Origin: a virus | Direction: 5' to 3' (one strand) | Length of the DNA stretch: 64,000 nucleotides | IMG/VR virus record: IMGVR_UViG_3300027969_000050 | Coordinates: 1-64,000 of that record | In this document: positions 44,272 through 57,563 of the stretch, in pieces | Position numbering within the stretch: position 1 is the first letter of the stretch | Layout of the letters: each line of letters begins with the position of its first letter | Notes under the pieces: generated by a model | Databases searched by the model: none | The model's input: the letters and a program-made list of their open reading frames with translations, nothing else | What the model was told of the DNA's origin: nothing | Translations under genes and position numbers: made by a program

Positions 44272-44688
44272 CTACATAAGGTCAAGCACACGCAATTCAA
44301 AATCATACGCATCATCTTCAGATTCCTCAATGCTCAACGGGTTGATTGTCAGCGTTCCATATTTTTTCTTTCCTCGATTGAACTGACTGATGTGTCGAAG
44401 TTCATGGGCAAACAGCCTTATGATGTCGCGCTCTCCACATTCAAACCCCAGAGACATTTGCACCCACCCATCGGGGTGATAGCGGAAATTATTTCTTCGG
44501 ACGGAAAAGTTGTCCGGATGCGCCCAACCATTGAAATCAGAATGCGACGGAGAGAGCCGCGTTTCGACAAAGAGGCCCCGTACCCTCAGATCACGATCAA
44601 CCTCTCTTACAACGGCCTTTACGTCGTTTAGAAGCAACCTTAGATCCGGGAACTCACAGTCAATCCCAGCAGAGCAAGATACTTGCAC
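44272..44688 (-). CDS. Small HEXXH metallopeptidase-like protein
   Basis: LFAHELRHISQ..EESEDDA. Confidence 0.7.
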   Translation of the reverse strand: MQVSCSAGIDCEFPDLRLLLNDVKAVVREVDRDLRVRGLFVETRLSPSHSDFNGWAHPDNFSVRRNNFRYHPDGWVQMSLGFECGERDIIRLFAHELRHISQFNRGKKKYGTLTINPLSIEESEDDAYDFELRVLDLM

Positions 44689-44689
44689 G

Positions 44690-44715
44690 GTTTCCCCCCT
44701 TTGGATGGAGGAAAC
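44690..44715 (-). promoter_or_regulatory. SD-sequestering hairpin upstream of HEXXH gene
   Basis: GTTTCCTCC / GGGGGAAAC 9-bp stem ending 1 nt before GTG. Confidence 0.65.
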
Positions 44716-44757
44716 TTATGCTCTCTTTACGGCTGTGTAAATAGTCCTAACGGACTA
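44713..44757 (-). promoter_or_regulatory. Operator-coupled promoter
   Basis: TAGTCC-GTTA-GGACTA, 1 nt, TTACAC, 16 nt, TAAGTT. Confidence 0.55.
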
Positions 44758-44769
44758 CTTTAGGGACGG

Positions 44770-45120
44770 TTAGGCGCCATCCGTTTGGATAGGTGCCATT
44801 GGCCTGCCGTACTGGTAGCGATCCCAATCAAACTGAGGACTATTGTCGTATTCCTCGTTAGGGTGTCCCGGCCCAAGAGCCTGAACTACCTGTCGTTTAA
44901 CGAAAGGATCGGTTAGGGGCTTACCCTTGACGTCTGTTACTCGCCAGCCGCGCTTAATCTTTGCGGCAAAGCCCGTCATCGCGTTTGGATCCCCAGACTC
45001 ATTAGCCAAGCTTTCGAGAGTCGGATTGTCGAGCGGGTGGTCTTCTAAAGCGTGAGCGAAAGTGACCGCTGCTGTTTGAGGAGAAAAGCACCACATGTAG
45101 AACGTCGGTTCATAGGTCAT
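44770..45120 (-). CDS. Hypothetical protein with late-type start motif
   Basis: TAA-TCGT-TG-ATG start. Confidence 0.6.
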   Translation of the reverse strand: MTYEPTFYMWCFSPQTAAVTFAHALEDHPLDNPTLESLANESGDPNAMTGFAAKIKRGWRVTDVKGKPLTDPFVKRQVVQALGPGHPNEEYDNSPQFDWDRYQYGRPMAPIQTDGA

Positions 45121-45126
45121 CAACGA

Positions 45127-45555
45127 TTACAGGGCGTATTCAGGGTGCTTAGAGGGCCAGAAGTAGGGCATCGGAGAGTCGTCCCAGAGTTCTCCGTACC
45201 AGTCAGAATCCTTCACTATAAGATTTGAACGGTGCGATGCGTGTACACGATCATCGCCCCACCACGCAGGGAATGACTCGTCGTCAAACTTGAAAGCTTC
45301 AATGCGACCTCGTAGATCGGTGTTGTCATTGCCACCTTGAGCGACCCACTCGTCGCACATGATTAGACCGTAGAGACGCAAGGCGCCGCCGTAACCGCGC
45401 CACATATGAACGGCTGGGTGACTCTGCCAGCCGTAAGTGTCGTCTGTGATCGCACGAAGAACCTGAAACGCCTCGATTCGCTGCTTGTTGAGGCGACGAC
45501 GATCTAAGGACGAAGCACACTTGTAGATATCTGGATACGGAACGAATGTCTGCAT
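45127..45555 (-). CDS. MSMEG_6728-family / pyrimidine-dimer glycosylase (DenV-like) protein
   Basis: MQTFVPY..LDRRRLNKQRIEA.Q..HPAVHMWRGY..HASHRSNL. Confidence 0.88.
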   Translation of the reverse strand: MQTFVPYPDIYKCASSLDRRRLNKQRIEAFQVLRAITDDTYGWQSHPAVHMWRGYGGALRLYGLIMCDEWVAQGGNDNTDLRGRIEAFKFDDESFPAWWGDDRVHASHRSNLIVKDSDWYGELWDDSPMPYFWPSKHPEYAL

Positions 45556-45557
45556 CG

Positions 45558-45794
45558 CTATATTATATCAGTAATAGATGAACGAATGCTATCCAAGGCC
45601 TGCTGGGCGCGCTTAACTCCAGCCGCGCTGTTTGGCAAGGAAAGAGGGACCGTCGCTATTTCAACAAGCGCATCGCGAAGACTGTTTCTCTCCATAATTG
45701 CCTTGTCGATTGCCTCCTGTACATCCTTGTACTGGACCCAGTTTCCCTTGTTGTCTCGCCTTATCTTATTGCCGTCTATGCTATATCGTCTCAT
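45558..45794 (-). CDS. Hypothetical protein
   Basis: ATGA coupled; GNWVQYKDV. Confidence 0.6.
   Translation of the reverse strand: MRRYSIDGNKIRRDNKGNWVQYKDVQEAIDKAIMERNSLRDALVEIATVPLSLPNSAAGVKRAQQALDSIRSSITDII
45562..45570 (-). promoter_or_regulatory. Extended -10 leaderless promoter (TG-A-TATAAT)
   Basis: 6 nt before ATG 45555. Confidence 0.7.
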
Positions 45795-46006
45795 TGTTTG
45801 TGAAGCTCCCCATCGGAAAGAAATTGTGTGATTCTTTGACGAGTGTACGGAGTCCTTACCGCTATCTCACGATGAGACGCCCCGGCGCGACCCGCCCTGC
45901 GACAAGCAGAAGCCAAAACCTCACGCCTGTTCTCAAGTTCCGCCTTTGCTTGAAGGTATTTATGAGAGGCAAGTTCAACAGATTCCAAAGCATGCTTGCG
46001 GCTCAT
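45791..46006 (-). CDS. Small HTH protein
   Basis: AGASHREIAVRTPYTRQRITQFL; ATGA overlap. Confidence 0.65.
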   Translation of the reverse strand: MSRKHALESVELASHKYLQAKAELENRREVLASACRRAGRAGASHREIAVRTPYTRQRITQFLSDGELHKQ

Positions 46007-46191
46007 TTTGCTTTCCTCCAAAGACCTACGACTTGACGAGCGGTTACTGAGTAGTGAGTAAACCTAGGATCCATCGGCTGGATAGAGAGGGAACTCTCCC
46101 CCTCTTTCTTTTCCGTCACCGTAGCGAAGAAAATTCTCCCCTTGATGTCGCACTTGACGATATCTCCAGATTTGACTCTCGATAGTTGCAT
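46003..46191 (-). CDS. Small SH3-like protein
   Basis: VKSGDIVKCDIKGRIFFATV; leaderless start. Confidence 0.6.
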   Translation of the reverse strand: MQLSRVKSGDIVKCDIKGRIFFATVTEKKEGESSLSIQPMDPRFTHYSVTARQVVGLWRKAK

Positions 46192-46197
46192 TCGACG

Positions 46198-46243
46198 AAA
46201 CTACTGAATGGCCAATCGATTAGCAACCCGTCTAAACGGATGG
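46198..46243 (-). promoter_or_regulatory. Operator-coupled leaderless promoter
   Basis: CCATCC-GTTT-AGACGG, 1 nt, TTGCTA, 17 nt, TAGTTT, 6 nt, ATG. Confidence 0.65.
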
Positions 46244-46325
46244 TTTTACTTTCAAACGGACTGGTCAATCTGGGTTGCATGTCGCCATCACATTGTTATA
46301 CCGGTATCCAAACGGATAAAGGATG

Positions 46326-46637
46326 ATGGCGGCCCCAGAACCACTAGAAATAATTTTAAAACACATCGAGCAGCTCCGAGAGGATGTTCGTGAAGGCTTT
46401 GAACGGATTGACGGTCGGCTTACCAAGCTTGAAGAACGAGTAGGCCGAACTGAAAAATGGCAAGCCGAAAAAGACGCCGTTGAGAAGGCCTTAGATGATC
46501 AGTCAGACGAGAGAAACGCAAACGCGCATATTACTTTAAACAGCCGTCAAGTAGTGATTGCAACGATAGGCGGAGTGCTTGCCCTCGCAATGGTAATCAT
46601 TAGCGTATTACAAGTCTTTAACGTCATCGGTACTTAG
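46326..46637 (+). CDS. Coiled-coil protein with C-terminal TM helix (XhlA/holin-like)
   Basis: RIDGRLTKLEERVGRTE coiled coil plus VVIATIGGVLALAMVIISVL; late motif at start. Confidence 0.55.
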   Translation: MAAPEPLEIILKHIEQLREDVREGFERIDGRLTKLEERVGRTEKWQAEKDAVEKALDDQSDERNANAHITLNSRQVVIATIGGVLALAMVIISVLQVFNVIGT

Positions 46638-48641
46638 CATTCCGCGCATCAGATCGCGCAGAATACTTGTTTGAGCGGGGTTGTCTCCGCCGTCCATAAT
46701 TGCGCTAGTGACCGTGCGCTTGCTCTCAATCAATTCCACAATGCGCTCGTCGATTGTTCCCTGAGCAATCAGGTACCAAGCCGTAACCGAATCTGACTGA
46801 CCGATACGGTGGCAGCGGTCCTCCGCCTGATCGTGTTCCGCTGGCGTCCAACCAACCTCTAAGAAAGCAACATTTGATGCAGCCGTAAGGGTGATGCCGG
46901 TGTTTGCAGCCTTGAGAGAGCAGACGATAATACGGCAGGACTCGTCATTTTGAAACTTATCAACCTGTTCTTGCTTTTCCTTGGCGTCCATTCCGCCAGA
47001 AATGCTTGCCATGTTGGACTTTGCAAGGCGCTTGTCCTCACGAACGCTTTTGGCAACGTCACGATGATGAACAAAGAGAACCAGCTTCTCCGACTCGATA
47101 AAGTCAGCGGCCCATTCGATAGCGGCCTCAACCTTTCCTCTTGCCGCGATCTGCTTAAGGGTCTGAATTTGGACGAGGACTTCTGCCTGCGACGCCCTTG
47201 CCGCAGCGGTGTTAGCGCGCTGGTCACGGAGCTTTTTCTTTTCTTCCTTGGAGAGACCGGCCTCTTCGGCTTCAATCTCGGCCTTCTGCTCCGCACTCTT
47301 GCGTAGATATCCGATTACGTCGTCTTCTGCGGCTCGGTACTCAGAAAAGTTGTCGATCTCCATTGGGATAATCGCCCGCTGCTTGGCGGGAAGCTCTTTT
47401 AGAACGTCGCTCTTAAGACGCCGAACAAAGCACGAGCCGCGCAGCTTTTCGTTTAGCTCGTCAAGATGGGTGGCTCCGTCCATGTTCCAACCGAAGCGGT
47501 CCTTGTAAGCGCCACAGTAACGAAGAAAGAACTTGAAGCCGCCGAACTCTTTTTCTCGTCCCAGAATCTTTAGCTGCGGAGCAAGTTCTTTTGGTCGATT
47601 GAGGACAGAGGTTCCGGTTAGGTTCAAGACAAGCCCATCGTCCGGAATAAGGTTTGCGATTGCAAGATCGGCCTGAGTCCTTTTAGCCTTCGGGTTCTTG
47701 AGATTGTGGGACTCATCGTTTACGAGAGACTTGGGAGAGAAGGCGATTAGTTCTTCCTTCCAAGAGTCCAAGATGTCGTAGTTGATTACTACAACGTCGC
47801 AGGCGTCTGGGATCCTAAGCGCCTTTTTGCCTGAGAGTACGTCCACGACTCGATTTGGACAGGCGGTCTTCCATGCCCTCTGCCAGCCGTACTTCATGTT
47901 TCCTTGACAGACAATGACTACCGGGAAGGCATCGGCGGCGTGAATTGAAGCAATAGCCTGAAAGGTCTTGCCAAGCCCCTGCTCGTCAGCGATGAATGTG
48001 CGGCGGGTTTTCAAAACGTATTCGACCCCGGCCTTCTGGAATGGATAAAGCTCGACGCCGAAATCCTTGATCTCAAAGTCGGACTCCGCTTCGTCTTGAC
48101 GGGAGAGGATGGTTAGCTCGTCGTGTTTTGCCTCTTCGATGACGGCGCCATCAAGGAGAGTGGAAAGATGAGCGGTCACGTCCTTGCCGACCTTTACGTT
48201 GAACCGAGTGATGAAATTTGCCGTGCCGTCAGCGGCTTTCGGAACTCCGGGTACCGTCCATGTCTTGCTGGTCGGGTTGAAGTTGCGTCCGGGGATGCTC
48301 TTCACTGACTCCAAGCAATTATAGAAGTCATCGGTTCCGGGTTCAAAGCTGATTTCAAAGTCGCCCTGATTGAGCCGAACTTTGATTAGCGGCTCGTCGG
48401 CTACTTTGTCGAGTTCCTTGCTGGCCTCGTCCGTGAGAGAGAAGCCGTGATTCTCAGCGAGAGAACGGACAGGGGCTGCGTTGCCAGCGGATACAGAGGC
48501 GGTCCAGAACTTATTGCTGGGGTTCCACTTGCGCCTCGGAAGAGATTTGATCGAAGCAACGACTTCACTGTCGTATTCGCACTCGATTACGAGATCGGAA
48601 CCGTCAAATGAGATTTTGCGTTCCTTCTGCTTGGTAGCCAT
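46608..48641 (-). CDS. SNF2-family ATPase with two N-terminal HARP-like domains
   Basis: ADEQGLGKT, DESH, LTGT, QAEDRCHRIGQ; IKSLPRRKWNPSNKFW and VKSIPGRNFNPTSKTW. Confidence 0.92.
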   Translation of the reverse strand: MATKQKERKISFDGSDLVIECEYDSEVVASIKSLPRRKWNPSNKFWTASVSAGNAAPVRSLAENHGFSLTDEASKELDKVADEPLIKVRLNQGDFEISFEPGTDDFYNCLESVKSIPGRNFNPTSKTWTVPGVPKAADGTANFITRFNVKVGKDVTAHLSTLLDGAVIEEAKHDELTILSRQDEAESDFEIKDFGVELYPFQKAGVEYVLKTRRTFIADEQGLGKTFQAIASIHAADAFPVVIVCQGNMKYGWQRAWKTACPNRVVDVLSGKKALRIPDACDVVVINYDILDSWKEELIAFSPKSLVNDESHNLKNPKAKRTQADLAIANLIPDDGLVLNLTGTSVLNRPKELAPQLKILGREKEFGGFKFFLRYCGAYKDRFGWNMDGATHLDELNEKLRGSCFVRRLKSDVLKELPAKQRAIIPMEIDNFSEYRAAEDDVIGYLRKSAEQKAEIEAEEAGLSKEEKKKLRDQRANTAAARASQAEVLVQIQTLKQIAARGKVEAAIEWAADFIESEKLVLFVHHRDVAKSVREDKRLAKSNMASISGGMDAKEKQEQVDKFQNDESCRIIVCSLKAANTGITLTAASNVAFLEVGWTPAEHDQAEDRCHRIGQSDSVTAWYLIAQGTIDERIVELIESKRTVTSAIMDGGDNPAQTSILRDLMRGMLSTDDVKDL

Positions 48642-48647
48642 ACGAAT

Positions 48648-48656
48648 AGTATAGCA
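48648..48656 (-). promoter_or_regulatory. Extended -10 leaderless promoter (TG-C-TATACT)
   Basis: 6 nt before ATG 48641. Confidence 0.7.
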
Positions 48657-48668
48657 GATTTGAAGATT

Positions 48669-49049
48669 CTAGTCTACAGGCTGGCCGAGCGCCGCAGCCG
48701 CGATTTGCTGCGCCTGTGACTTGGTGCAATCGGCGCAGGCCTGCAATGCCTCTACAAACTTAGTGTTATTGGCCTTATACGCCTCTAACTCAATGCTTAG
48801 TTGTTCTACGTCTGATTGACTGACGCTATGGCTAGAGACCTCTAATAGCTTGGTCTGGGAGTCTTTCAGATCTTTACGAAGGGAATCAACCTCCACTTGA
48901 CGCATTGCGCTTGCTTGCTCAGTTGTGCTTCGCGCCGCTGCGACCGCCTCTCGAGCCTCGATTAGAAGGCTCTCAGAAGCCGCTAGTTGGCGCTGGAGAT
49001 CAGAAGTTTTTTGGACGGCATCAAGATACTGCTGACGATAATCAGCCAT
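48669..49049 (-). CDS. Coiled-coil hypothetical protein
   Basis: Heptad pattern; TAATG coupling. Confidence 0.6.
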   Translation of the reverse strand: MADYRQQYLDAVQKTSDLQRQLAASESLLIEAREAVAAARSTTEQASAMRQVEVDSLRKDLKDSQTKLLEVSSHSVSQSDVEQLSIELEAYKANNTKFVEALQACADCTKSQAQQIAAAALGQPVD

Positions 49050-49375
49050 TACTGCGCCTTCATTGACGAAACCGCGTCTGCCGTCTTTTGGATGTTCGCA
49101 AGATCCGACGCCGAAGCAACAGATAACTTCGACTCAGACGGGAGCTTGCTGGACTCCTCTACAAGCCGCTCGCCCATTTTCTCTGCCGCCTCTTTATTCA
49201 AAGAGAAGGAGATCTGGCCAAACGGAACCTGAAGCGGGTTTCCGTCACCGGAATCAAGTGGAAGCATTTGCCCAATTGTGAGATTGACCCTGAGACCAGC
49301 CTTGGCTGCTTCCTCGTCCTCCGGAACCGAGAGGCTCATACCCATTACATTAATCTCTGCGTTGAATGCTGTCAT
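49049..49375 (-). CDS. Hypothetical protein
   Basis: 108 aa, leaderless start. Confidence 0.6.
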   Translation of the reverse strand: MTAFNAEINVMGMSLSVPEDEEAAKAGLRVNLTIGQMLPLDSGDGNPLQVPFGQISFSLNKEAAEKMGERLVEESSKLPSESKLSVASASDLANIQKTADAVSSMKAQ

Positions 49376-49381
49376 TGCTAA

Positions 49382-49426
49382 ATCCTATCACTTGTCATTG
49401 GTTTGCCTACCCGTCCAAAAGGATGG
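49382..49426 (-). promoter_or_regulatory. Operator-coupled leaderless promoter
   Basis: CCATCC-TTTT-GGACGG, 1 nt, TAGGCA, 16 nt, TAGGAT, 6 nt, ATG. Confidence 0.65.
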
Positions 49427-49434
49427 GTTTACTA

Positions 49435-50049
49435 TCAATCGATTAGCCCTTGACGAAGAGCAGCGCTAACCGCCGCCCCCTTGTTATGGACGCCGAGTTT
49501 GGAATAAATATTGCGAAGGTGGAATTTGATTGTGGGTTCAGCGATGTAAATCTCCCCCGATATTTTCTTTGCGGTAAGCCCGTCCGCGACCAAGATCAAG
49601 ATCTCGCGTTCACGCGGGGTCAGCTTGCACGGCCTCCCTGCGTCTCTGAGAGTTCCTACGAGCTGCGAGTGAATCTCCCCTAGAGCGGTCTCACCACGAG
49701 CCACTTGCTTGACCACATCAAAAATGCTTTTTGGGGACCGAGTTGCAAACCCCATCAATCCATTCGCCACAGCCTCAACGAAATCTATCGTGTGGCAGCT
49801 ACAGCAGATTAAGACCGGGGCCGCTTCTGATTCGGCCTCGTGCAGCTTGCGAATTATCTGCGGGCCAGAAAGTCCCGGGAGGCAGGCTCCCAAAATCGCA
49901 ACGGTTGGAGCTTCAATAATAAGCTCTTGAAGGGCCTTGGCTCCGTCCGACGCGGAGCCTAAAACACGGCCCTCAAACAACTGTGACAGGCCGATGATTG
50001 AAATTGGATCGTCAGCTATGTAAACGCTAAACCCCTGCTCTAAGCCCAC
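49435..50049 (-). CDS. NarL/LuxR-family regulator with degenerate receiver domain
   Basis: LTPREREILILVADGLTAKKIS..TIKFHLRNIYSKLGV; receiver VAILGACLPGLSG lacks the phospho-Asp. Confidence 0.9.
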   Translation of the reverse strand: MGLEQGFSVYIADDPISIIGLSQLFEGRVLGSASDGAKALQELIIEAPTVAILGACLPGLSGPQIIRKLHEAESEAAPVLICCSCHTIDFVEAVANGLMGFATRSPKSIFDVVKQVARGETALGEIHSQLVGTLRDAGRPCKLTPREREILILVADGLTAKKISGEIYIAEPTIKFHLRNIYSKLGVHNKGAAVSAALRQGLID

Positions 50050-50078
50050 TTTTTCTCCAATGATGGTGTGTGGGCGGA

Positions 50079-50107
50079 ACTATACAGACGGATGGGGTCT
50101 AGGTCAA
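50079..50107 (-). promoter_or_regulatory. SigA-type promoter of regulator, overlapped by operator copy
   Basis: TTGACC-17-TATAGT; operator 50080-50095. Confidence 0.75.
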
Positions 50108-50595
50108 GAAAGCGCCGATGCGCCATACGAAGAAGCCGCAAAATGCGTTAATTCTTTAGCGTGGGACTGGGTGAAGCCCTCAAAGGGATCAACCTGAATC
50201 GCCATCGTCGGAACCGACAAGGAACGACGCCTTGCCCATTCAACCCCGTCTTCGTAGATGTGGTCGTCCATCCAAACCAGCGGTCGGTCCTCGTGTTCAT
50301 TGTCCTCTAGGTATCGGTCGATTCCGTAGAGCTTGAAGGTTTGGTGATTGAGATCCATCGAGGCAAAGCTGATGGCGTCAAGAGGTGGGAGATCATGAAG
50401 AGGCCCAACGTCAATGTTGGCCGTCGTTCCTCTCATCGTCGCCCAGACAATCTCGTAGGACTCCATAAGATGCGTCAAGGCATCGCGGGTTCGAGGACTC
50501 CAATACACCTGCATCTCAGGATGCCATGTGTACGAAGGGGCGGGGGCGAACGGGAAAAGAACGCCGTCAACATCAAGCAAAAGTAGTGGTCTCAT
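50104..50595 (-). CDS. HAD-superfamily phosphatase (Swiss-army-knife RNA repair-like)
   Basis: LLLLDVDGVL, WAT, PLVWMDD; TG-A-TAAACT 6 nt upstream. Confidence 0.85.
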   Translation of the reverse strand: MRPLLLLDVDGVLFPFAPAPSYTWHPEMQVYWSPRTRDALTHLMESYEIVWATMRGTTANIDVGPLHDLPPLDAISFASMDLNHQTFKLYGIDRYLEDNEHEDRPLVWMDDHIYEDGVEWARRRSLSVPTMAIQVDPFEGFTQSHAKELTHFAASSYGASALS

Positions 50596-50624
50596 TGCTT
50601 TAGTTTATCACATTCGGTAAGAGA

Positions 50625-50654
50625 TTGACACCGCGTATCTTTTCATGCTAGACT
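50625..50654 (+). promoter_or_regulatory. SigA-type promoter
   Basis: TTGACA-18-TAGACT with extended TG. Confidence 0.7.
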
Positions 50655-50744
50655 TCTCACATCAGGCAAATGGATTAGCGAATCAGTAAGTTTGAGTTTT
50701 GTTGCTACTCTATTTGCGTCAGGTAATTCAAACAGGAGAATCAC

Positions 50745-51287
50745 ATGTCTAGTCGTACCAAGCAGCGCCCCAAGACCAAGGCCAAGGCCAAGGTAGTAAC
50801 CACACGGAAGCAGAGCATCACCAAACAGTTCCGTGCCAAGGCAATGGCTCGTGCAAAGGTTCTCGCCCCTCAGGTTCATGAGTACCATGAACTGATCGAG
50901 TTCCTCGATATGACGGCTCCGAAAGTGGCGCCGAAGCCAGAAGCAGCAAAGCCAAAGGCAAAGGCCGCGCCTAAGAGCCGTTCGCGTAAGCGCACAGCTA
51001 CCAAGGCAACAGGCAAGCGCCGAGGCGCTCCGCCGCGCAGGGCGACTGAGTTCGCCAATCTGGTAAATGAGAACCCCGGCATGACCGTCCGTGAAGCTTC
51101 AAAAAAGCTTGACGACGTAAATGAGACCTACCTGCACCGCATCGGTAAGGATCTCGTCGGTGACGGAACGCTCCGCAAGGAAGGTTCCGGGTACTACCCA
51201 GCAGGAAACGCAGTGGTCGTCGAAGCCGCTCCGGTAGTAACGGAGACCCCGGCAATGACGCCGGTTGAAACGCCAGAAGCCTTCTAG
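50745..51287 (+). CDS. Basic nucleoid-associated-like protein: helical N domain, K/A/P/R linker, C-terminal winged HTH
   Basis: AGGAG SD; RATEFANLVNENPGMTVREASKKL..TYLHRIGKDLVGDGTLRKEGSGYYP. Confidence 0.75.
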   Translation: MSSRTKQRPKTKAKAKVVTTRKQSITKQFRAKAMARAKVLAPQVHEYHELIEFLDMTAPKVAPKPEAAKPKAKAAPKSRSRKRTATKATGKRRGAPPRRATEFANLVNENPGMTVREASKKLDDVNETYLHRIGKDLVGDGTLRKEGSGYYPAGNAVVVEAAPVVTETPAMTPVETPEAF

Positions 51288-51309
51288 GCGTTTCTTCCAT
51301 ACGCAGTAA

Positions 51310-51340
51310 GCGGCCCGCCTTTGTGCGGGCCGTTTTATTT
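51310..51340 (+). terminator. Intrinsic terminator
   Basis: CGGCCCGC-CTTTGT-GCGGGCCG-TTTTATTT. Confidence 0.88.
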
Positions 51341-51368
51341 TCTCGTCCAGTTCCAATCCGTAAAGAAT

Positions 51369-51677
51369 GTGATCTGGCAAGACGCAGTTTTCTCGTTTGG
51401 AGCTTTGATATTCGCCGTAGCCTTGCTTCCGGCAATACTCACCAAGCGCTACCCGCCGATCTCAACGTGTGTTGTCACGGCTCTACTTCTCGTGGCATTC
51501 GCAGTTGCCGACGCATCGCTCGGTCTCGTGTTCGCCACCGCTTTTTCACTGCTTGACGCAGCCCTATGGGGCTATATGGGGGCTAAGCAGCTTCGTGGTA
51601 AGAGCGCTCGATCTCTTCCGAATCAAGGCTCGACACATCAAACACCCGACCAAGATGCCTTAGAAGGTCCTCAGTGA
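51369..51677 (+). CDS. Three-TM small membrane protein
   Basis: Three hydrophobic segments; TAA-AGAA-T-GTG start. Confidence 0.6.
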   Translation: MIWQDAVFSFGALIFAVALLPAILTKRYPPISTCVVTALLLVAFAVADASLGLVFATAFSLLDAALWGYMGAKQLRGKSARSLPNQGSTHQTPDQDALEGPQ

Positions 51678-51891
51678 GGTAGGGAGCGTCCCAATCGGTG
51701 CGACGAAGGAAAGTGTCGATGCAGGGGAAGCTAAGCGCAGTCCTCATAGCCATTGCGTAGTTTCCGCCTATAACTCCAACTGACAGGCGGTCGTGTCTGA
51801 CTTTGGCGTACAGAGACCGTGAGTCCTCTAGTTCGCCCTCCCATTGGCAGATGTGCCACTCGGACACCTTACGAAGGGCGATTATCTTCAT
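51583..51891 (-). CDS. Hypothetical protein
   Basis: QWEGELEDSRSLYAKVRH; promoter TTGACA-17-TATCTT at 51927-51955. Confidence 0.6.
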   Translation of the reverse strand: MKIIALRKVSEWHICQWEGELEDSRSLYAKVRHDRLSVGVIGGNYAMAMRTALSFPCIDTFLRRTDWDAPYLTEDLLRHLGRVFDVSSLDSEEIERSYHEAA

Positions 51892-52004
51892 TGTGCTTTC
51901 CCCACAGAGCATCAAACATTGCAGCGAAGATAGGGTACAAGAAAGCCGCTGTCAAATCTCCAGCGTGATGAGCGACTGTTCTAATTGGGTTCACGTTTAA
52001 ATCT

Positions 52005-53507
52005 CTACCGGTTCGCCAAATTGATGTTGGCGATGTGGGCCGTCGTTACGTCAGGCGGCTGTTGAGGATTCGGCGCATAGCGTAAAATCCAGTCCCGCGA
52101 TGGAATTTCTTTTTTGATCTCTTGGAAGGAAATCGCATCATCCGCGCTCAGTCCGTAATCGGTGCGGGTCAAGCCACGCTCGATTTCTTCCGCCGCGCCG
52201 GGAAATTCGTATTGATACGGAAGCCGGTGAACCCCGTCAGTATCGTAGGCATACTGGTCGTCATGGGTAAAGAAATGCCACGGCGTTACCGGACTCTCGA
52301 CGTATTCGCCATTGACTACATCGCGGGACGGCACGTCTACATAATGCATTCCAATACTAAGCTCAGGGTAGGCTTGCTGATGTGCAATAGCCCATTCCAA
52401 GCAACTTCCGAACATCCCATTCTCGGCTTCGTCCTCTGACGGCACCCATCGAGCGCCCAGCACATAGGAAGATTCACGAGGAGAAAGCTTCGCTAGGGGC
52501 TTATCCCAAGCGCCAGCCTTTTCTTGAATGCTTAGGTCGCCCACAACTGGCAGTCCAATGTCGGACGGATGCATGTATTGAGGAGGCGTTGGATTTCCTT
52601 GGTAGTCTTGGTAGGGTCCCACATATTGGAACCTATGACCATTAGGCTTATACGGCTTGCGAGTAGATCGAATAACGAAAACAGGAAGGGAGGTCAGGCC
52701 CAACTGTTCCGCAATTCCGACTCGGTGATTCCCTTCTGAAACGTGTGCCTCTCCAGTTAGTTCATTGAACTCAACCACGACCGGTTCCTGAACACCATTC
52801 TGGGCGATACTGTCCTTTAGTTCATCTATGGCGACACTGTCCTTCAGTGCATCTACGTCCTCTCCGAAACGGTCGTACTCGAGAAGTTCTGTCAGCAATT
52901 GAGTGGGAACGTATCCGGTAAATTCCTCCAAAAAAGCAGTCTTTTTTTGGGAAGCCTGAATTCCCGGCTTCATCTCCCTGATGCTGGACTGGTCAATTGG
53001 GTCGCTGGCCCAGTCGGCTCCTTCTCCCCAAGACAAGCACTTACAGCTTTCGTAAAGCTCGTCACATTCGGGGCAGACATGCGGGTCCTTGTCTAGGCGA
53101 CCAAACTTTGCCGTTCCAAGAAAAGAAGTCAAGGCGTCAGAGATCTGCTTCTGATCCTTTTCCGAACAGTTCCACCCTCGGGCCGTCGGAATGTTTACGT
53201 CGCCAGTGACCCGAGAAACGTGACCCCGATGAATTGGCCCAATGAGATCCCCGTCAATGGCTTGCATTATTTGTGCGTGCAAGCTTCCCGGGGGCGCTAA
53301 AAATATTTTTCTTGCGCCCATGTCAACGAGGAAAGGCGTCGTTTCGGGCTGAAAATTTTCATCATCGTCAACGTCAACCCATTGGATCTCGTATTTTGGC
53401 TCGTTAGGAGCGACAGAGTTTGGAAAGTTTCCGGGCTGAATAGACTTGCCGGAGTCCCCGTCCTCGCCCCAGTCCGAATCATAAGCATCAGAAAGACGCC
53501 GGTACAT
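52005..53507 (-). CDS. Multidomain protein with ParB/Srx-like domain and papain-like Cys-His-Asp domain
   Basis: LKDSIAQNGVQEPVVV..SEGNHRV; GSCLEWA..WHFF..YDTDG. Confidence 0.75.
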   Translation of the reverse strand: MYRRLSDAYDSDWGEDGDSGKSIQPGNFPNSVAPNEPKYEIQWVDVDDDENFQPETTPFLVDMGARKIFLAPPGSLHAQIMQAIDGDLIGPIHRGHVSRVTGDVNIPTARGWNCSEKDQKQISDALTSFLGTAKFGRLDKDPHVCPECDELYESCKCLSWGEGADWASDPIDQSSIREMKPGIQASQKKTAFLEEFTGYVPTQLLTELLEYDRFGEDVDALKDSVAIDELKDSIAQNGVQEPVVVEFNELTGEAHVSEGNHRVGIAEQLGLTSLPVFVIRSTRKPYKPNGHRFQYVGPYQDYQGNPTPPQYMHPSDIGLPVVGDLSIQEKAGAWDKPLAKLSPRESSYVLGARWVPSEDEAENGMFGSCLEWAIAHQQAYPELSIGMHYVDVPSRDVVNGEYVESPVTPWHFFTHDDQYAYDTDGVHRLPYQYEFPGAAEEIERGLTRTDYGLSADDAISFQEIKKEIPSRDWILRYAPNPQQPPDVTTAHIANINLANR

Positions 53508-53509
53508 AA

Positions 53510-54331
53510 CTACGTTTTAATAATGTAGTTAAGGGCTAGGGAGGGCTGCATGTTTGGATGCGAGCCGCCGTCCCCAGTGTAATCAGTAAATCCGGTAACG
53601 GAGTGGCGATGGTCAGCGTTTTGCGGAGCGGTCCCGCCGCTGTGATTGTGGGCTGCTGGGCCGTTAGCCCCTACATCTAGGTACCCTCGCTCGAATGGTC
53701 CAACGCTCGTTCCGCCTGCAAACTTTGCGGTTCCGGCTGTACGATAAACGCCGCCAGAGCCGCCTTGATTATTCAAAGAGTGAGTATGACTCAAAGACTG
53801 GTTTTCGGTCCCCGTAGTAAAGCTGTGGGCGTGGTCGGTATCTTGGATCCCAGTTCCAAGCGTGGTACCACTGTGACGATGAGATGGGATCTGCGCTGTC
53901 GTCAGCGTATGGGATTCCGTACCAAACACGCTGGCAAGGGTTCTTGCGGTTAAGCCAGATCCGGTTCCAACTCCAACAATAGCGCGGCCCCGAAGGTCGG
54001 GAAGCGTGAAACTTCCGCCGGAGCCGCCGTATGTATAGGCGACAACAGCGAATAGGTCGGCGTAGGTCGTAGTTGATACGCTTGCACCATCACAGAGCAG
54101 ATATCCAGTTGGAGACGAGCTGCCAGCGTAGGGAAGGATTACTCCGGTGATTCCCGTGCCAGCAGCGCCAGTTGGTCCGGTAGCTCCTGTCGGTCCTCCT
54201 GAAGGCCCCGTTGGTCCTGTTGATCCGGTAGGTCCGGTGGATCCAACTGACCCTGTCGGGCCTGTTGGGCCTGTTATTCCTGTTGGTCCGGTGGGTCCTG
54301 TTTGTCCGGCCTTACGAGTAAGGCTAGTCAT
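53510..54331 (-). CDS. Collagen-stalk tail collar-domain fibre
   Basis: GPT repeats; [30 protein letters not shown]; HxH; [16 protein letters not shown]. Confidence 0.88.
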
Positions 54332-54795
54332 TAGCTAAGAGCCGTCCAACTAACGCCGTCGCCACTTGTCGTTGCGTCAATGTAAATCAAGCTCGGGTTT
54401 GTGATATCAATAGTTACCGTATCGCCAATACCGAGCGGCGTACCCCTGCGGGTAGGGCTTCCTTGAGTTCCGGGAGCAGCAACACAAGTAGATCCGCCAA
54501 CAACAATTGTTCCGGTGTTTGTTGACAAAGCTGTAATGATAATTTGTTTAATTGTTGCCGACGCGGCGAGGGAGGCTCGAGTTCCGGCTGTTGTGACTAC
54601 TTTAATTCCATCGGTAATTGTCGTGTTGGCAATTAAAGGAATCGTAACGGGTAAAGGATTGGCCGCCGTAACGTGACTGGCAACACCGTCTCCACCCATA
54701 TCTAGCTTTATGTACTGGTACTGCACGCCCCCAACATCGTCGGAAGCGATGTTCGCGGTTCCGGAACTAGCATTAATTATTACGTTATCAGCCAT
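54331..54795 (-). CDS. Virion structural (fibre adaptor-like) protein
   Basis: [27 protein letters not shown]; late motif. Confidence 0.65.
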
Positions 54796-54871
54796 CAACC
54801 TTTACAGTCCCGCTAACCAGAGATTTCCGGGGTTGGTTGCGCGGAGCAATTTTGTCTGCTACCTTTCCCGA

Positions 54872-55057
54872 ATGGATACAGAACAAAACAGAGAGATAGA
54901 GTATGAGGAATATGTCAAAGCTATCTCTCTTGACAGCGAGCTAATCAAGAACGGAAAGATTGAAATTCCTTCGTTTGAAGAGTGGCTTTCTTATCAGCTT
55001 TACTCTGAGCAAATATCAGTAGGCAAATCACCTAGGAGGCAATGTGCCAGTAATTAA
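54872..55057 (+). CDS. Small hypothetical protein
   Basis: Leaderless behind TTGCGC-17-TACCTT (54837-54865). Confidence 0.6.
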   Translation: MDTEQNREIEYEEYVKAISLDSELIKNGKIEIPSFEEWLSYQLYSEQISVGKSPRRQCASN

Positions 55058-55241
55058 ACCGCGTCGTCGTCGGGTTTGGGAAAATCCGCCAGAGAGCCGC
55101 AAGGCTTGGAAAAAGAATAAGAAGGCCGATCTTCGGAAGGCTGGCTTGGAAACTCGCCATGCGGTCAAAAAGGCCGCAGTAAAGGCAGAGAAACGGGCCG
55201 CCAAGAAGGAAGCAAGGGAGTCGGCAAATGAGAACGCTTAA
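55044..55241 (+). CDS. Small very basic protein
   Basis: AGGAGG SD, GTG start, K/R/A rich. Confidence 0.6.
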   Translation: MPVIKPRRRRVWENPPESRKAWKKNKKADLRKAGLETRHAVKKAAVKAEKRAAKKEARESANENA

Positions 55242-55479
55242 GCTTTTTCGCTGGGTCATTGAGACGCGAGCGCATCGAACACGATTCATCGGCTTAGGCA
55301 TCGAGATTGACCCCGCAGTAGGCGGAGTCGGATTTCTCTTCTGCCTACCGCTCATTGATGTTTCGTTCGACGTTTGGAGCTTAAGCCACCTGCAAAAGGC
55401 GGCGGAGCAACTAGCGGAGTTAGTTAACGCTGAAAAGCCTGACTGGAGCATTTACGCCCCAGCCAAGCAAAAGCATTAG
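55228..55479 (+). CDS. Hypothetical protein
   Basis: GGGAG SD; operon context. Confidence 0.5.
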   Translation: MRTLKLFRWVIETRAHRTRFIGLGIEIDPAVGGVGFLFCLPLIDVSFDVWSLSHLQKAAEQLAELVNAEKPDWSIYAPAKQKH

Positions 55480-55652
55480 TCGTCTCGGTTAGAAACACTG
55501 ACAATGTGGCTTGGGTTTAGCGCAAGCCGCATCTCGGCACCGTCTGGGCCAATCGTCGTTAATTCAACTAGTGGTCCTTGAAGGTCCTTGATCTCGTCTA
55601 GGCTCTCAACGACTACATAGTTGCCTTGGGTGGTACTGATTACAGTTGACAT
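55476..55652 (-). CDS. 58-aa protein (not in ORF track)
   Basis: MSTVISTTQGNYVVVESLDEIKDLQGPLVELTTIGPDGAEMRLALNPSHIVSVSNRDD; AAGGAG SD; TG-A-TAGAAT at 55684-55692. Confidence 0.7.
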   Translation of the reverse strand: MSTVISTTQGNYVVVESLDEIKDLQGPLVELTTIGPDGAEMRLALNPSHIVSVSNRDD

Positions 55653-55695
55653 GAATTACTCCTTGTGTGGTTTGTTACAAGGTATTCTATCACAA

Positions 55696-55923
55696 CTATA
55701 GTCCGGGCTTCTGCAATACCCCCTGCAAGAGTCCTGTGGCTTGGTTTAGCAGGTTTACGGCGTTGTTTACGTCCGCATCGGGGTTATTAGCTAGAGCTTG
55801 AGTCATCTGCTGAATGGACAGCAATTGCGTGACGAGGGGCTGAAGGTTGGCGTTTTGCGCGCTTACGCGCCCCAACCCGTGACGAATCGACCGCTGCTCG
55901 TCTCTATCAAAGCTTTTAGGCAT
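55696..55923 (-). CDS. Small helical protein with late-type start motif
   Basis: TAA-AGGC-TG-ATG. Confidence 0.6.
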   Translation of the reverse strand: MPKSFDRDEQRSIRHGLGRVSAQNANLQPLVTQLLSIQQMTQALANNPDADVNNAVNLLNQATGLLQGVLQKPGL

Positions 55924-55949
55924 CAGCCTTTACGCGGTTGTATTTGGAT

Positions 55950-56023
55950 AAAAGAAGGGCCGGGTTCCCGAGAGGTTCCCGACCCTTCCCCACACAACCA
56001 TCATGGCTGGCATCACACCAGCT
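55950..56023 (-). ncRNA. Putative ~74-nt small regulatory RNA
   Basis: TG-C-TATGCT promoter (56029-56037), 5' hairpin, GU-rich linker, 11-bp terminator stem plus TTTT; no ORF. Confidence 0.65.
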
Positions 56024-56064
56024 TGTAAAGCATAGCAGACTCCTTATGTGCTATACTATTGGCT

Positions 56065-56658
56065 ATGCCCAACTGGTGTTTAAACAAATTAGAAATTGAC
56101 GGACGACCAGAGGTGCTTTCCAGATTCTACGAGGAAAACCTCTCAGAAGAGGGAAGCTCGCTGTCATTCAGTAGATCCGTTCCGCTCATGGACCCGCTTA
56201 AGTTTGAAAGCACTTTGATTCCCTTGGCCGTAATTGTTTGGGGAACCAAATGGGACGCCTGTGAGGTAACGGCCTTTGCTGATGAGGCTTTGACCGACCC
56301 AATTGATATTGCTCGGCGCATCGGAGAAGGGGCAAAGTTCTATTACAAGTTTGACACCGCTTGGTCTCCGCCAGTCGAGTGGCTGGAGCAGATCGCCCCC
56401 AAGTATCCGGAGATCTCTTTTCGGCTGTCCTTTGTGGAGCCGGGAATGGATTTTATGGGAGAAGACGTCCATGAGAACGGGGAGCGCAAGTCTAGTTCTA
56501 GCGGCCCAATGGACTACAAGTTTGCTTCTGAGCGAGGGTTGCTATCATGGCCAGACTGTTACGGATGCGGTGATCCGCACACCGAAGAGTTTGTCAACGA
56601 AGAGCTTTGTGAGAAGTGTGCAGAGCAAGACCTAATGATGAGAGGAAAACCATCGTGA
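56065..56658 (+). CDS. YubB/DUF1281-like ferredoxin-fold protein
   Basis: MPNWC.N, WGTKWDA, FDTAWSPP, EPGMDF.G; TG-C-TATACT promoter 56049-56057. Confidence 0.85.
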   Translation: MPNWCLNKLEIDGRPEVLSRFYEENLSEEGSSLSFSRSVPLMDPLKFESTLIPLAVIVWGTKWDACEVTAFADEALTDPIDIARRIGEGAKFYYKFDTAWSPPVEWLEQIAPKYPEISFRLSFVEPGMDFMGEDVHENGERKSSSSGPMDYKFASERGLLSWPDCYGCGDPHTEEFVNEELCEKCAEQDLMMRGKPS

Positions 56659-57563
56659 ACAACCACCCAATTGATTCGATCCGTGTAGTTGAGTTCTGGG
56701 AGCAAGGTTATAACTATCGTGAAACCGGAGAGCAGTTCGGCGTAAGTCGAGAGCGTATTCGGCAGATCGTAGTCGCCTCGCACAAGAAAACCTGCCAGCT
56801 ACCTTGGATTGGACCCGGAGAGGGAGTGGCCTGTGGGTGCATCAGCGCCCATAGATCCGGTCGGGATCGCCTTCGTGGAGAAATACTGGCGAAGCATGCG
56901 GACGCAATTAAGGTTGAATACCTAAGCGGAATGCCGATGAAGGATATTGCACAAAAGCACGATCTTTCAGCCAAGGATACTCATTGGTTTGTTGAAGGTT
57001 TCTCTGAGGAAACCAAAGCAATTCGCAATTCCAATATGTGGACTGCAAACAAAACCCGAGGCACCAACGATCTTGATAAGCACATTGTGAACATCAAGTC
57101 CCTTGCCGACAAACTGGGTCGGGTTCCAACAAGGGCTGAATATGACCGCGAAGCCGCTTTGCAAGGCTGGCGCTCAGCCCAAACAATCTGCATTAGGTTT
57201 GGGTACTGGTCAAGTGCAATCAAGGCCGCTGGGCTTGTTCCAAGCAAGGTCACAGCAAGCGTGAGTAAGTCCCGGCGCGACAAGCATTGGAACGACGAGA
57301 AAGTGCTTGACGCAATGCACTACATGTATGAGGCCTATGGCGAGATCCCCCCTTTAACTCGATACCGGGAAATCTATAAGGAAGTTCCGTGGCTTCCTTC
57401 GGACCAAATGATTCGTCGCGGAAGCGGCTGGCCTGAGACGCGCCTATTGATCATGAATACGCATGATGATTGGGAGCCTAAGTTCAGCACCGACGAGCTT
57501 ATTCCGCCAACGGGAACTGGTGGCCGACCAAAGAACACAAACACAACGGAGGCAATAGCATGA
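56655..57563 (+). CDS. DNA-binding protein: sigma-region-4-like HTH plus homing-endonuclease-associated repeats
   Basis: YRETGEQFGVSRERIRQI; LGRVPTRAEYD..RFGYWSSAIKAAGL; GTGA overlap. Confidence 0.7.
   Translation: MNNHPIDSIRVVEFWEQGYNYRETGEQFGVSRERIRQIVVASHKKTCQLPWIGPGEGVACGCISAHRSGRDRLRGEILAKHADAIKVEYLSGMPMKDIAQKHDLSAKDTHWFVEGFSEETKAIRNSNMWTANKTRGTNDLDKHIVNIKSLADKLGRVPTRAEYDREAALQGWRSAQTICIRFGYWSSAIKAAGLVPSKVTASVSKSRRDKHWNDEKVLDAMHYMYEAYGEIPPLTRYREIYKEVPWLPSDQMIRRGSGWPETRLLIMNTHDDWEPKFSTDELIPPTGTGGRPKNTNTTEAIA

Follow-up and report, generated by a model that had tools for sequence, protein, structure and literature searches.

The stretch of DNA analysed here (the window) covers positions 1-64,000 of the IMG/VR virus record IMGVR_UViG_3300027969_000050, which has a length of 140,266 bp and is 87% complete by CheckV. 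Genes between 2 and 56 kb of the window lie mostly on the minus strand, and positions 44690-56037 contain the elements of interest: the gene for an atypical NarL/LuxR-family regulator, a set of 20-bp palindromic boxes, three of them placed at weak promoters, a hairpin at the ribosome-binding site of a gene for an HExxH protein, and a 74-nt RNA. An original prediction, made from the letters of the sequence, had joined these elements into one circuit in which the RNA represses the regulator and the regulator drives the box-linked promoters. The four predicted elements are all found where it placed them, and the circuit built on them is partly supported.

The regulator (49435-50049, minus strand; 204 residues) is composed of an N-terminal receiver-like domain (PF00072, 28.8 bits, just below the Pfam cut-off of 30.2) and a C-terminal GerE/LuxR helix-turn-helix (HTH) domain (PF00196, 62.7 bits vs a cut-off of 23.5), the latter being the only GerE domain above cut-off in the 140-kb record. 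NarL (1a04, E 1e-17), ChrA, VraR and DevR (3c3w, E 1.9e-12) all align with the protein from end to end. In the NarL alignment the phospho-acceptor Asp59 at the end of β3 is replaced by Gly and Lys109 by Arg, while the acidic Asp-Asp pair is retained. Ten metagenomic relatives, compared as protein sequences (52–90% identity, on contigs up to 140 kb), place the regulator in a phage-type clade in which the acceptor position is Gly or Ser in 11 of 11 members; the acceptor Asp is present in the nearest cellular homologues. Conservation within the protein is highest in the recognition-helix block, which is almost invariant among these relatives, so that they should recognise the same DNA. No HATPase_c match indicative of a histidine kinase was found in the 140-kb record, itself 87% complete, and no match to sigma region 2 that would indicate a phage sigma factor was found there either. 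A host kinase is possible as a partner, yet the regulator has no acceptor residue to offer it. By sequence the protein is thus an orphan pseudo-receiver with a dead phospho-site, in the sense in which the term has been used for atypical response regulators (PMC12632262), and the claim of an orphan NarL/LuxR protein lacking its phospho-Asp is upheld; the loss of the Asp extends to the ten relatives.

The boxes form the second element. With up to one mismatch allowed, the window contains 5 copies of the motif RTCCAAACGGAY vs 1.25 expected (0 of 100 shuffles reached 5), and when the scan is taken to the whole 140 kb, as the original prediction had proposed, 5 of 9 matches cluster in 44744-49424, all of them at gene boundaries. 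Considered with their flanks the sites are 20-bp palindromes of 8-4-8 architecture. Three of them lie upstream of promoters on the minus strand with a nearly constant geometry, the gap between the box and a TANNNT hexamer being 21, 22 and 21 nt. Box O1 (49409-49428) is centred at -43.5 of P49375, the leaderless promoter of gene 49049-49375, whose extended -10 element (TG-n-TAGGAT, 49382-49390) is followed after 6 nt by ATG 49375, the same Met at which the proteins of the relatives begin. Box O2a (46226-46245) is centred at -44.5 of P46191, where the -10 element TAGTTT (46198-46203) is again followed after 6 nt by an ATG (46191). Box O3a (44740-44759) is centred at -43.5 of P44706 (-10 element TAAGTT, 44713-44718; predicted start 44706) and can also form a 9-bp RNA hairpin after a 117-aa open reading frame (ORF). 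All three centres are counted from starts predicted from the -10 elements, which are weak in each case. The arrangement is that of a class II promoter, with a palindrome at a poor -35 and its centre 41–45 nt upstream of the predicted start, and the geometry claimed for the three promoters, a palindrome directly upstream of a poor -35, is borne out. A 21–22 nt gap would arise by chance with a probability of ~0.03 per site.

Three further sites accompany these boxes. O2b (46246-46265, minus strand) is degenerate, adjoins O2a and is centred at -64.5 of P46191, while O2c (46302-46321) lies at -120.5 of the same promoter and covers the predicted start of the plus-strand gene 46323-46637. The exact 12-mer core of O2c is identical to the core at 44779-44790, which belongs to O3b (44775-44794), a site in the last codons of ORF 44770-45123 that is centred at -78.5 of P44706. 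The half-site of the boxes resembles the NarL heptamer in its outer part, and a NarL heptamer binding mode was considered and rejected, the copies being 14 bp apart centre to centre and hence too far.

The placement of two of the three -10 elements has separate support from a promoter pattern that recurs in this phage. TGCTATA and its kin are strongly enriched in the intergenic DNA, and of the 3819 ATGs in the 140-kb record 6 complete the pattern TG-n-TANNNT-N6-ATG. All 6 of these ATGs (45555, 48641, 49375, 50595, 54872 and 88444) are the first ATG of a long ORF, the chance of any single ATG being a gene start being ~4%, and for two of the units the proteins of relatives start at the same Met. 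The consistent position at the first ATG indicates that the phage uses -35-less extended -10 promoters that give rise to leaderless mRNAs. The corresponding elements are at 45562-45570, 48648-48656, 49382-49390, 50602-50610 and approximately 54857-54865, with the last at ~88450 of the 140-kb record, so that 4 of the 6 promoters fall within 45.5-50.6 kb. Where no box is present, the -10 element of the leaderless promoters is TATACT or TATAAT. Because the ATG follows exactly 6 nt after the hexamer, the -10 elements of P49375 and P46191 are fixed independently of the boxes. The same grammar of extended -10, six bases and ATG helps to annotate gene starts in related metagenomic phages.

The regulator gene itself is preceded by the best canonical promoter of the region (50079-50107, minus strand), in which TTGACC and TATAGT are separated by a 17-nt spacer (10 of 12 consensus positions); its -35 shares bases with the stop codon of the HAD-like gene upstream. 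A box-like site with one good and one weak half-site (50078-50097, minus strand) lies over the spacer and -10 of this promoter. Its position weight matrix (PWM) score of 11.7 is the best of any intergenic site outside the training set, and in a directed test on the 54-nt gap ~0.002 such sites were expected. The palindrome that had been placed over the regulator's own -10 is present as a weaker copy, and it is probably an autorepression site, a reading with moderate support from the sequence.

A further element at the P44706 unit is a 9-bp hairpin (44690-44715, minus strand; z -3.1) in which 44690-44698 pair with a 5′ arm at 44707-44715, so burying the G-rich ribosome-binding site of gene 44272-44688 for the HExxH protein. 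The predicted P44706 start at 44706 is one base past the 5′ arm, so that the box-linked transcript would lack the masking arm and read-through RNA from upstream would carry it. This is the geometry described for a Shine-Dalgarno-occluding hairpin that the operator-coupled transcript bypasses, and masking of the ribosome-binding site by the hairpin is the function that we infer for it. The HExxH protein (138 aa, minus strand) has as its language-model neighbours phage-only families of 127–133 aa, and there is a faint lead to Peptidase_M78 (ImmA/IrrE-like).

The 74-nt RNA (55950-56023, minus strand) lies distal to these units and consists of a 5′ hairpin, a GU-rich linker (55989-56004), a terminator hairpin (55952-55991) and a U tract. 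It is preceded by an extended -10 element that matches the consensus (56029-56037, minus strand). The terminator comprises 14 bp followed by four U residues (folding energy -36.6 kcal/mol, z -3.1), and a U-G pair in its stem functions on the minus strand only. In the terminated RNA the linker is unpaired. No Rfam family matched the 74-nt RNA, and no ORFs over the RNA locus, sought in the protein collection as a proxy for the sequence of relatives, are on record. The conserved 75-aa ORF P0122 (55696-55923, minus strand) starts 27 nt after the terminator and has homologues 97% and 93% identical to it, one of them with an in-frame single-residue deletion. No TANNNT element that could serve as a promoter for P0122 is found in the 27-nt gap, which implies that P0122 is transcribed through the terminator and that the 74-nt species is best read as the prematurely terminated leader of the P0122 gene. 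The promoter and the terminator of the RNA thus stand as originally described, but its status as a free-standing RNA gene does not. The gene after P0122 encodes 58 aa and has its own extended -10 element at 55684-55692.

Several additional observations concern this locus. In the read-through RNA (55933-56004, minus strand) the linker pairs in cis with 55933-55947 (-19.5 kcal/mol), lengthening the stem to an extended structure of ~90 nt (z -3.5) that may serve the processing or the stability of the P0122 mRNA. At 56029-56057 extended -10 elements on opposite strands are 11 bp apart, with the plus-strand element at 56049-56057; this back-to-back pair serves the P0122 leader and a leaderless plus-strand gene (56065-56658, DUF1281_C-like). 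The idea that the RNA locus is an inverted copy of the 5′ end of an early gene was discarded, within-genome BLAST showing promoter-type matches only.

Taken together, these elements suggest an activator/autorepressor module, which is the best-supported part of the proposed circuit and which we hold to be about as probable as all other readings combined. The regulator would be made from a strong host-type promoter and would act independently of phosphorylation, its dimer most likely binding the 20-bp 8-4-8 boxes with a consensus near ACCCRTCC-N4-GGAYGGGT. From boxes at about -43.5 it would recruit RNA polymerase to the three weak promoters that lack a -35. P49375 would then drive two genes of unknown function, P46191 a group of small genes that includes a 76-aa HTH protein, and P44706 the gene for the HExxH protein and perhaps also the virion genes downstream. 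By occupying the weaker box in its own promoter, across the spacer and -10, the regulator would repress itself, and binding to O2c would repress the plus-strand gene at 46323. The terminated P0122 leader may in addition pair with CA-rich leaders, including that of the regulator.

Among the closest known systems, the one that resembles the activator part of this model is DosR/DevR of Mycobacterium tuberculosis. The DosR box is a 20-bp palindrome with a 4-bp AT-rich centre. DosR is likewise a NarL-family activator with a GerE HTH, and in the hspX promoter used for a cryo-EM study of it the DosR box is centred at ~-43.5 next to a suboptimal -35 and a consensus -10 (PMC13486717). The two systems differ in that DosR needs phosphorylation of Asp54 by DosS/DosT, whereas the phage regulator has Gly and no kinase is found in the record. 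They differ also in the half-site, which in DosR is unlike that of the phage box, and in that the phage protein is phage-encoded with a small local regulon. Of the residues through which DosR contacts DNA (K179, K182 and N183; PMC13486717), two of three positions appear changed in the regulator, as judged through the NarL alignment and not by a direct alignment.

A number of observations weigh against this module. Only three of the boxes are promoter-proximal, and two of them, O1 and O2a, have flanks in common and may have arisen from a single module by copying. O3a could be a terminator, given that its outer arms differ and that it folds into a good RNA hairpin. None of the other virion-gene promoters was found to be preceded by a box. 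The PWM score of the site at the regulator's own promoter falls within the range of the top shuffled-genome matches. Finally, the gene for the 76-aa HTH protein lies next to the boxes, which makes that protein a candidate binder on equal terms, and the regulator as box binder and activator is a prediction.

This last point leads to the alternative in which the boxes are real operators bound by the 76-aa protein or by a host factor, the NarL-type protein having other targets. The HTH-like protein (45791-46021, minus strand) belongs to the P46191 unit and matches PHROG 686, and the densest cluster of boxes (three copies) is in the upstream region of its gene. Its assignment as an HTH protein is weak (E 7.5e-06), and neither Pfam nor PDB gave a match. 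Other targets for the regulator can be proposed among eight plus-strand early promoters at 70972-78662 of the 140-kb record, beyond the window, which lack a -35 and share a conserved box of 10 bases placed 8 nt before an extended -10. This box shares CCGTCC with the half-site of the 20-bp palindromes, and the regulator could act there instead; each early promoter holds one half-site-like word only, its apparent second half being the extended -10, and repression by the regulator from these boxes is speculation. Two features set the boxes closer to the NarL-type protein than to the 76-aa protein, namely the box-like site over the promoter of the NarL-type gene itself and the match of the 20-bp palindrome, the 4-bp AT-rich centre and the -43.5 position to those of the NarL-family activator DosR. 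On balance we consider binding by the 76-aa protein or a host factor to be unlikely.

The full circuit of the original prediction goes further than the activator/autorepressor module, in that the 74-nt RNA would be a dedicated trans-acting small RNA (sRNA) whose linker pairs with the very start of the regulator mRNA, immediately 5′ of the ribosome-binding site, represses its translation and so tunes a self-limiting switch. The linker (55989-56004) is complementary at 15 of 16 nt, with one bulge, to a CA-rich stretch of the regulator leader (50060-50074, minus strand). Among 184 leaders that of the regulator is the best target of the linker (-28.0 kcal/mol vs a mean of -12.9, sd 3.6), and reciprocally the linker is the genome-wide best partner of the regulator leader (-27.8 kcal/mol, next best -26.0). 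Of shuffled seeds, 2% reach -28 with any leader and 0 of 200 do so with that of the regulator, and the linker is accessible in the terminated RNA as noted above. The CA-rich stretch is apparently kept in a relative, P0006, whose regulator is 69% identical and which is called from an upstream start so that its first 13 residues translate its leader. Back-translated, these residues can be matched to 22 positions of the regulator leader with a single mismatch and a single gap (p ~0.001-0.002). The CA-rich stretch and the ribosome-binding site therefore seem to be kept at 69% protein identity, an observation that fits a target site and a general translational feature equally well.

The pairing is sensitive to the position of the mRNA start. 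Three 5′ C residues of the regulator leader carry much of the pairing energy, and with a start at 50072 or 50071 (expected 7–8 nt after the -10) instead of 50074 it falls to -21.3 or -18.1 kcal/mol. CA-rich (CCACAC-like) stretches just upstream of the ribosome-binding site precede many leadered genes of the phage (for instance 50060-50074 and 55660-55680, and further leaders at 73.3, 76.8 and 65.9 kb of the 140-kb record), and several of these other leaders also score well with the linker. Since such leaders are common in the phage, the seed is not specific to the regulator. With the RNA being the leader of P0122, its linker pairing in cis in the read-through transcript, the start-site dependence and the common CA-rich leaders, and with no Rfam family to support it, the sRNA link to the regulator is weakened and stays unproven. 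The complementarity that had been described as 15 bp is thus real and the best in the genome, but it contains a bulge, depends on the start site and is of modest significance. Regulation in trans by the RNA is possible, though weaker as a proposal than originally judged, and the complete circuit with a dedicated sRNA is in our estimate improbable, to much the same degree as binding of the boxes by another protein.

That the palindromes act as hairpins in nucleic acid, serving as weak terminators or as sites of processing where genes end, with a coincidental -10 spacing, is very unlikely. In favour of this reading, the 9-bp O3a hairpin is followed by a U-rich stretch just after an ORF, the outer arms of O3a are symmetric within the site and differ in sequence from those of the other boxes, and 46228-46243 scores as terminator-like on the plus strand. 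Against it, A-C mismatches are present in O1 and O2a when the coding (minus) strand is read, the region of O2a-c is divergent and has no upstream gene to terminate, no U tracts follow O1 or O3b, and the 21–22 nt spacing at three sites is hard to attribute to chance, and two of the hexamers also fit the ATG rule.

The activator/autorepressor module and the terminated leader can be compared with further known systems. The atypical response regulators that have been reviewed comprise 20 examples, all bacterial, of which the NarL-family ones include VpsT and CsgD (PMC12632262). As in these pseudo-receivers, the phage protein keeps a receiver-like fold, has lost the phospho-acceptor and is encoded by an orphan gene, and it is presumably controlled through its expression level or by a ligand and not by a kinase. 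The phage clade differs in being carried by large uncultured phages and in keeping the acidic Asp-Asp pair. Phage LuxR-type quorum-sensing receptors are similar in that a phage-borne LuxR-type HTH is thought to time phage genes; they have an N-domain that binds acyl-homoserine lactones and respond to host signals, whereas the N-domain here is receiver-like with no known ligand (PMC6456758). The phi29 protein p4 offers a parallel in logic only, as an early phage protein that activates a later promoter and represses others through upstream or overlapping sites; its fold is unrelated and it acts from ~-82 together with p6 (PMC3100819).

For the 74-nt RNA the closest parallel appears to be StxS, the terminated PR′ leader of lambdoid phages that acts as a base-pairing sRNA (PMC7547250). 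A promoter-proximal terminator gives rise to a short RNA before a phage operon in both cases, and the PR′-tR′-type layout is found at P0122, with a terminator that lies after the promoter and ahead of the first gene. The unit behind it appears to be short here, P0122 being followed by the 58-aa gene with its own promoter. No alternative fold that would open the terminator was found in the read-through RNA, and no Q-like antiterminator has been identified, no search for Q- or N-like proteins having been made.

The module may be described as a phage-borne combination of known kinds of parts: a regulator of the NarL family with a pseudo-receiver, a promoter box of the class II type and a terminator within a leader. 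A broader generalisation would be that in a family of large uncultured phages, whose hosts probably belong to Actinomycetota or Chloroflexota, a NarL-type protein that needs no kinase is the middle/late switch and activates leaderless promoters from DosR-like boxes, with self-shutoff, possible shutoff of the early promoters and feedback from the terminated leader of another phage operon, which would pair with the CA-rich 5′ end of the regulator mRNA and perhaps with other CA-rich leaders; we regard this whole picture as distinctly unlikely, less so than the hairpin reading of the boxes but more so than either of the other alternatives. Confirmation of the module itself would show that pseudo-receiver response regulators have been taken up by phages as transcription switches that work without a kinase. 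The sRNA part matters only if action in trans is shown. The timing of gene expression in large phages of non-model hosts is largely unknown, and the region provides a compact test system with one small regulator, seven candidate sites and three short promoters with predicted starts.

GenBank phages gave no nucleotide match and no close protein, with distant helicase matches only. Scans of viral contigs with the regulator, the clade alignment, P0011, the SNF2 helicase and the early-promoter DNA pattern gave nothing closer than 26–33% identity, and a single metagenome scan returned cellular NarL homologues only (≤40% identity). The nearest cellular homologues of the regulator are from Actinomycetota (Streptosporangiales, Solirubrobacterales and Acidimicrobiia) and Chloroflexota, and their distribution suggests that the host probably belongs to one of these two phyla. 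A host in Actinomycetota or Chloroflexota would fit the -35-poor promoters and the leaderless mRNAs.

Two further features of the window lie outside the units described above. The plus-strand ORF at 56616-57563 has an N-terminal HTH (sigma-70 region 4/HTH_28-like) and a homing-endonuclease-associated repeat. On the same strand, 51272-51348 gives a near-threshold Rfam match to the alphaproteobacterial suhB/mmgR sRNA family (38.3 bits, gathering threshold 41). This segment spans a small hairpin, a U/C-rich linker and a terminator at the 3′ end of gene 50745-51287, and may be either a 3′-end-derived sRNA or a mere terminator look-alike.

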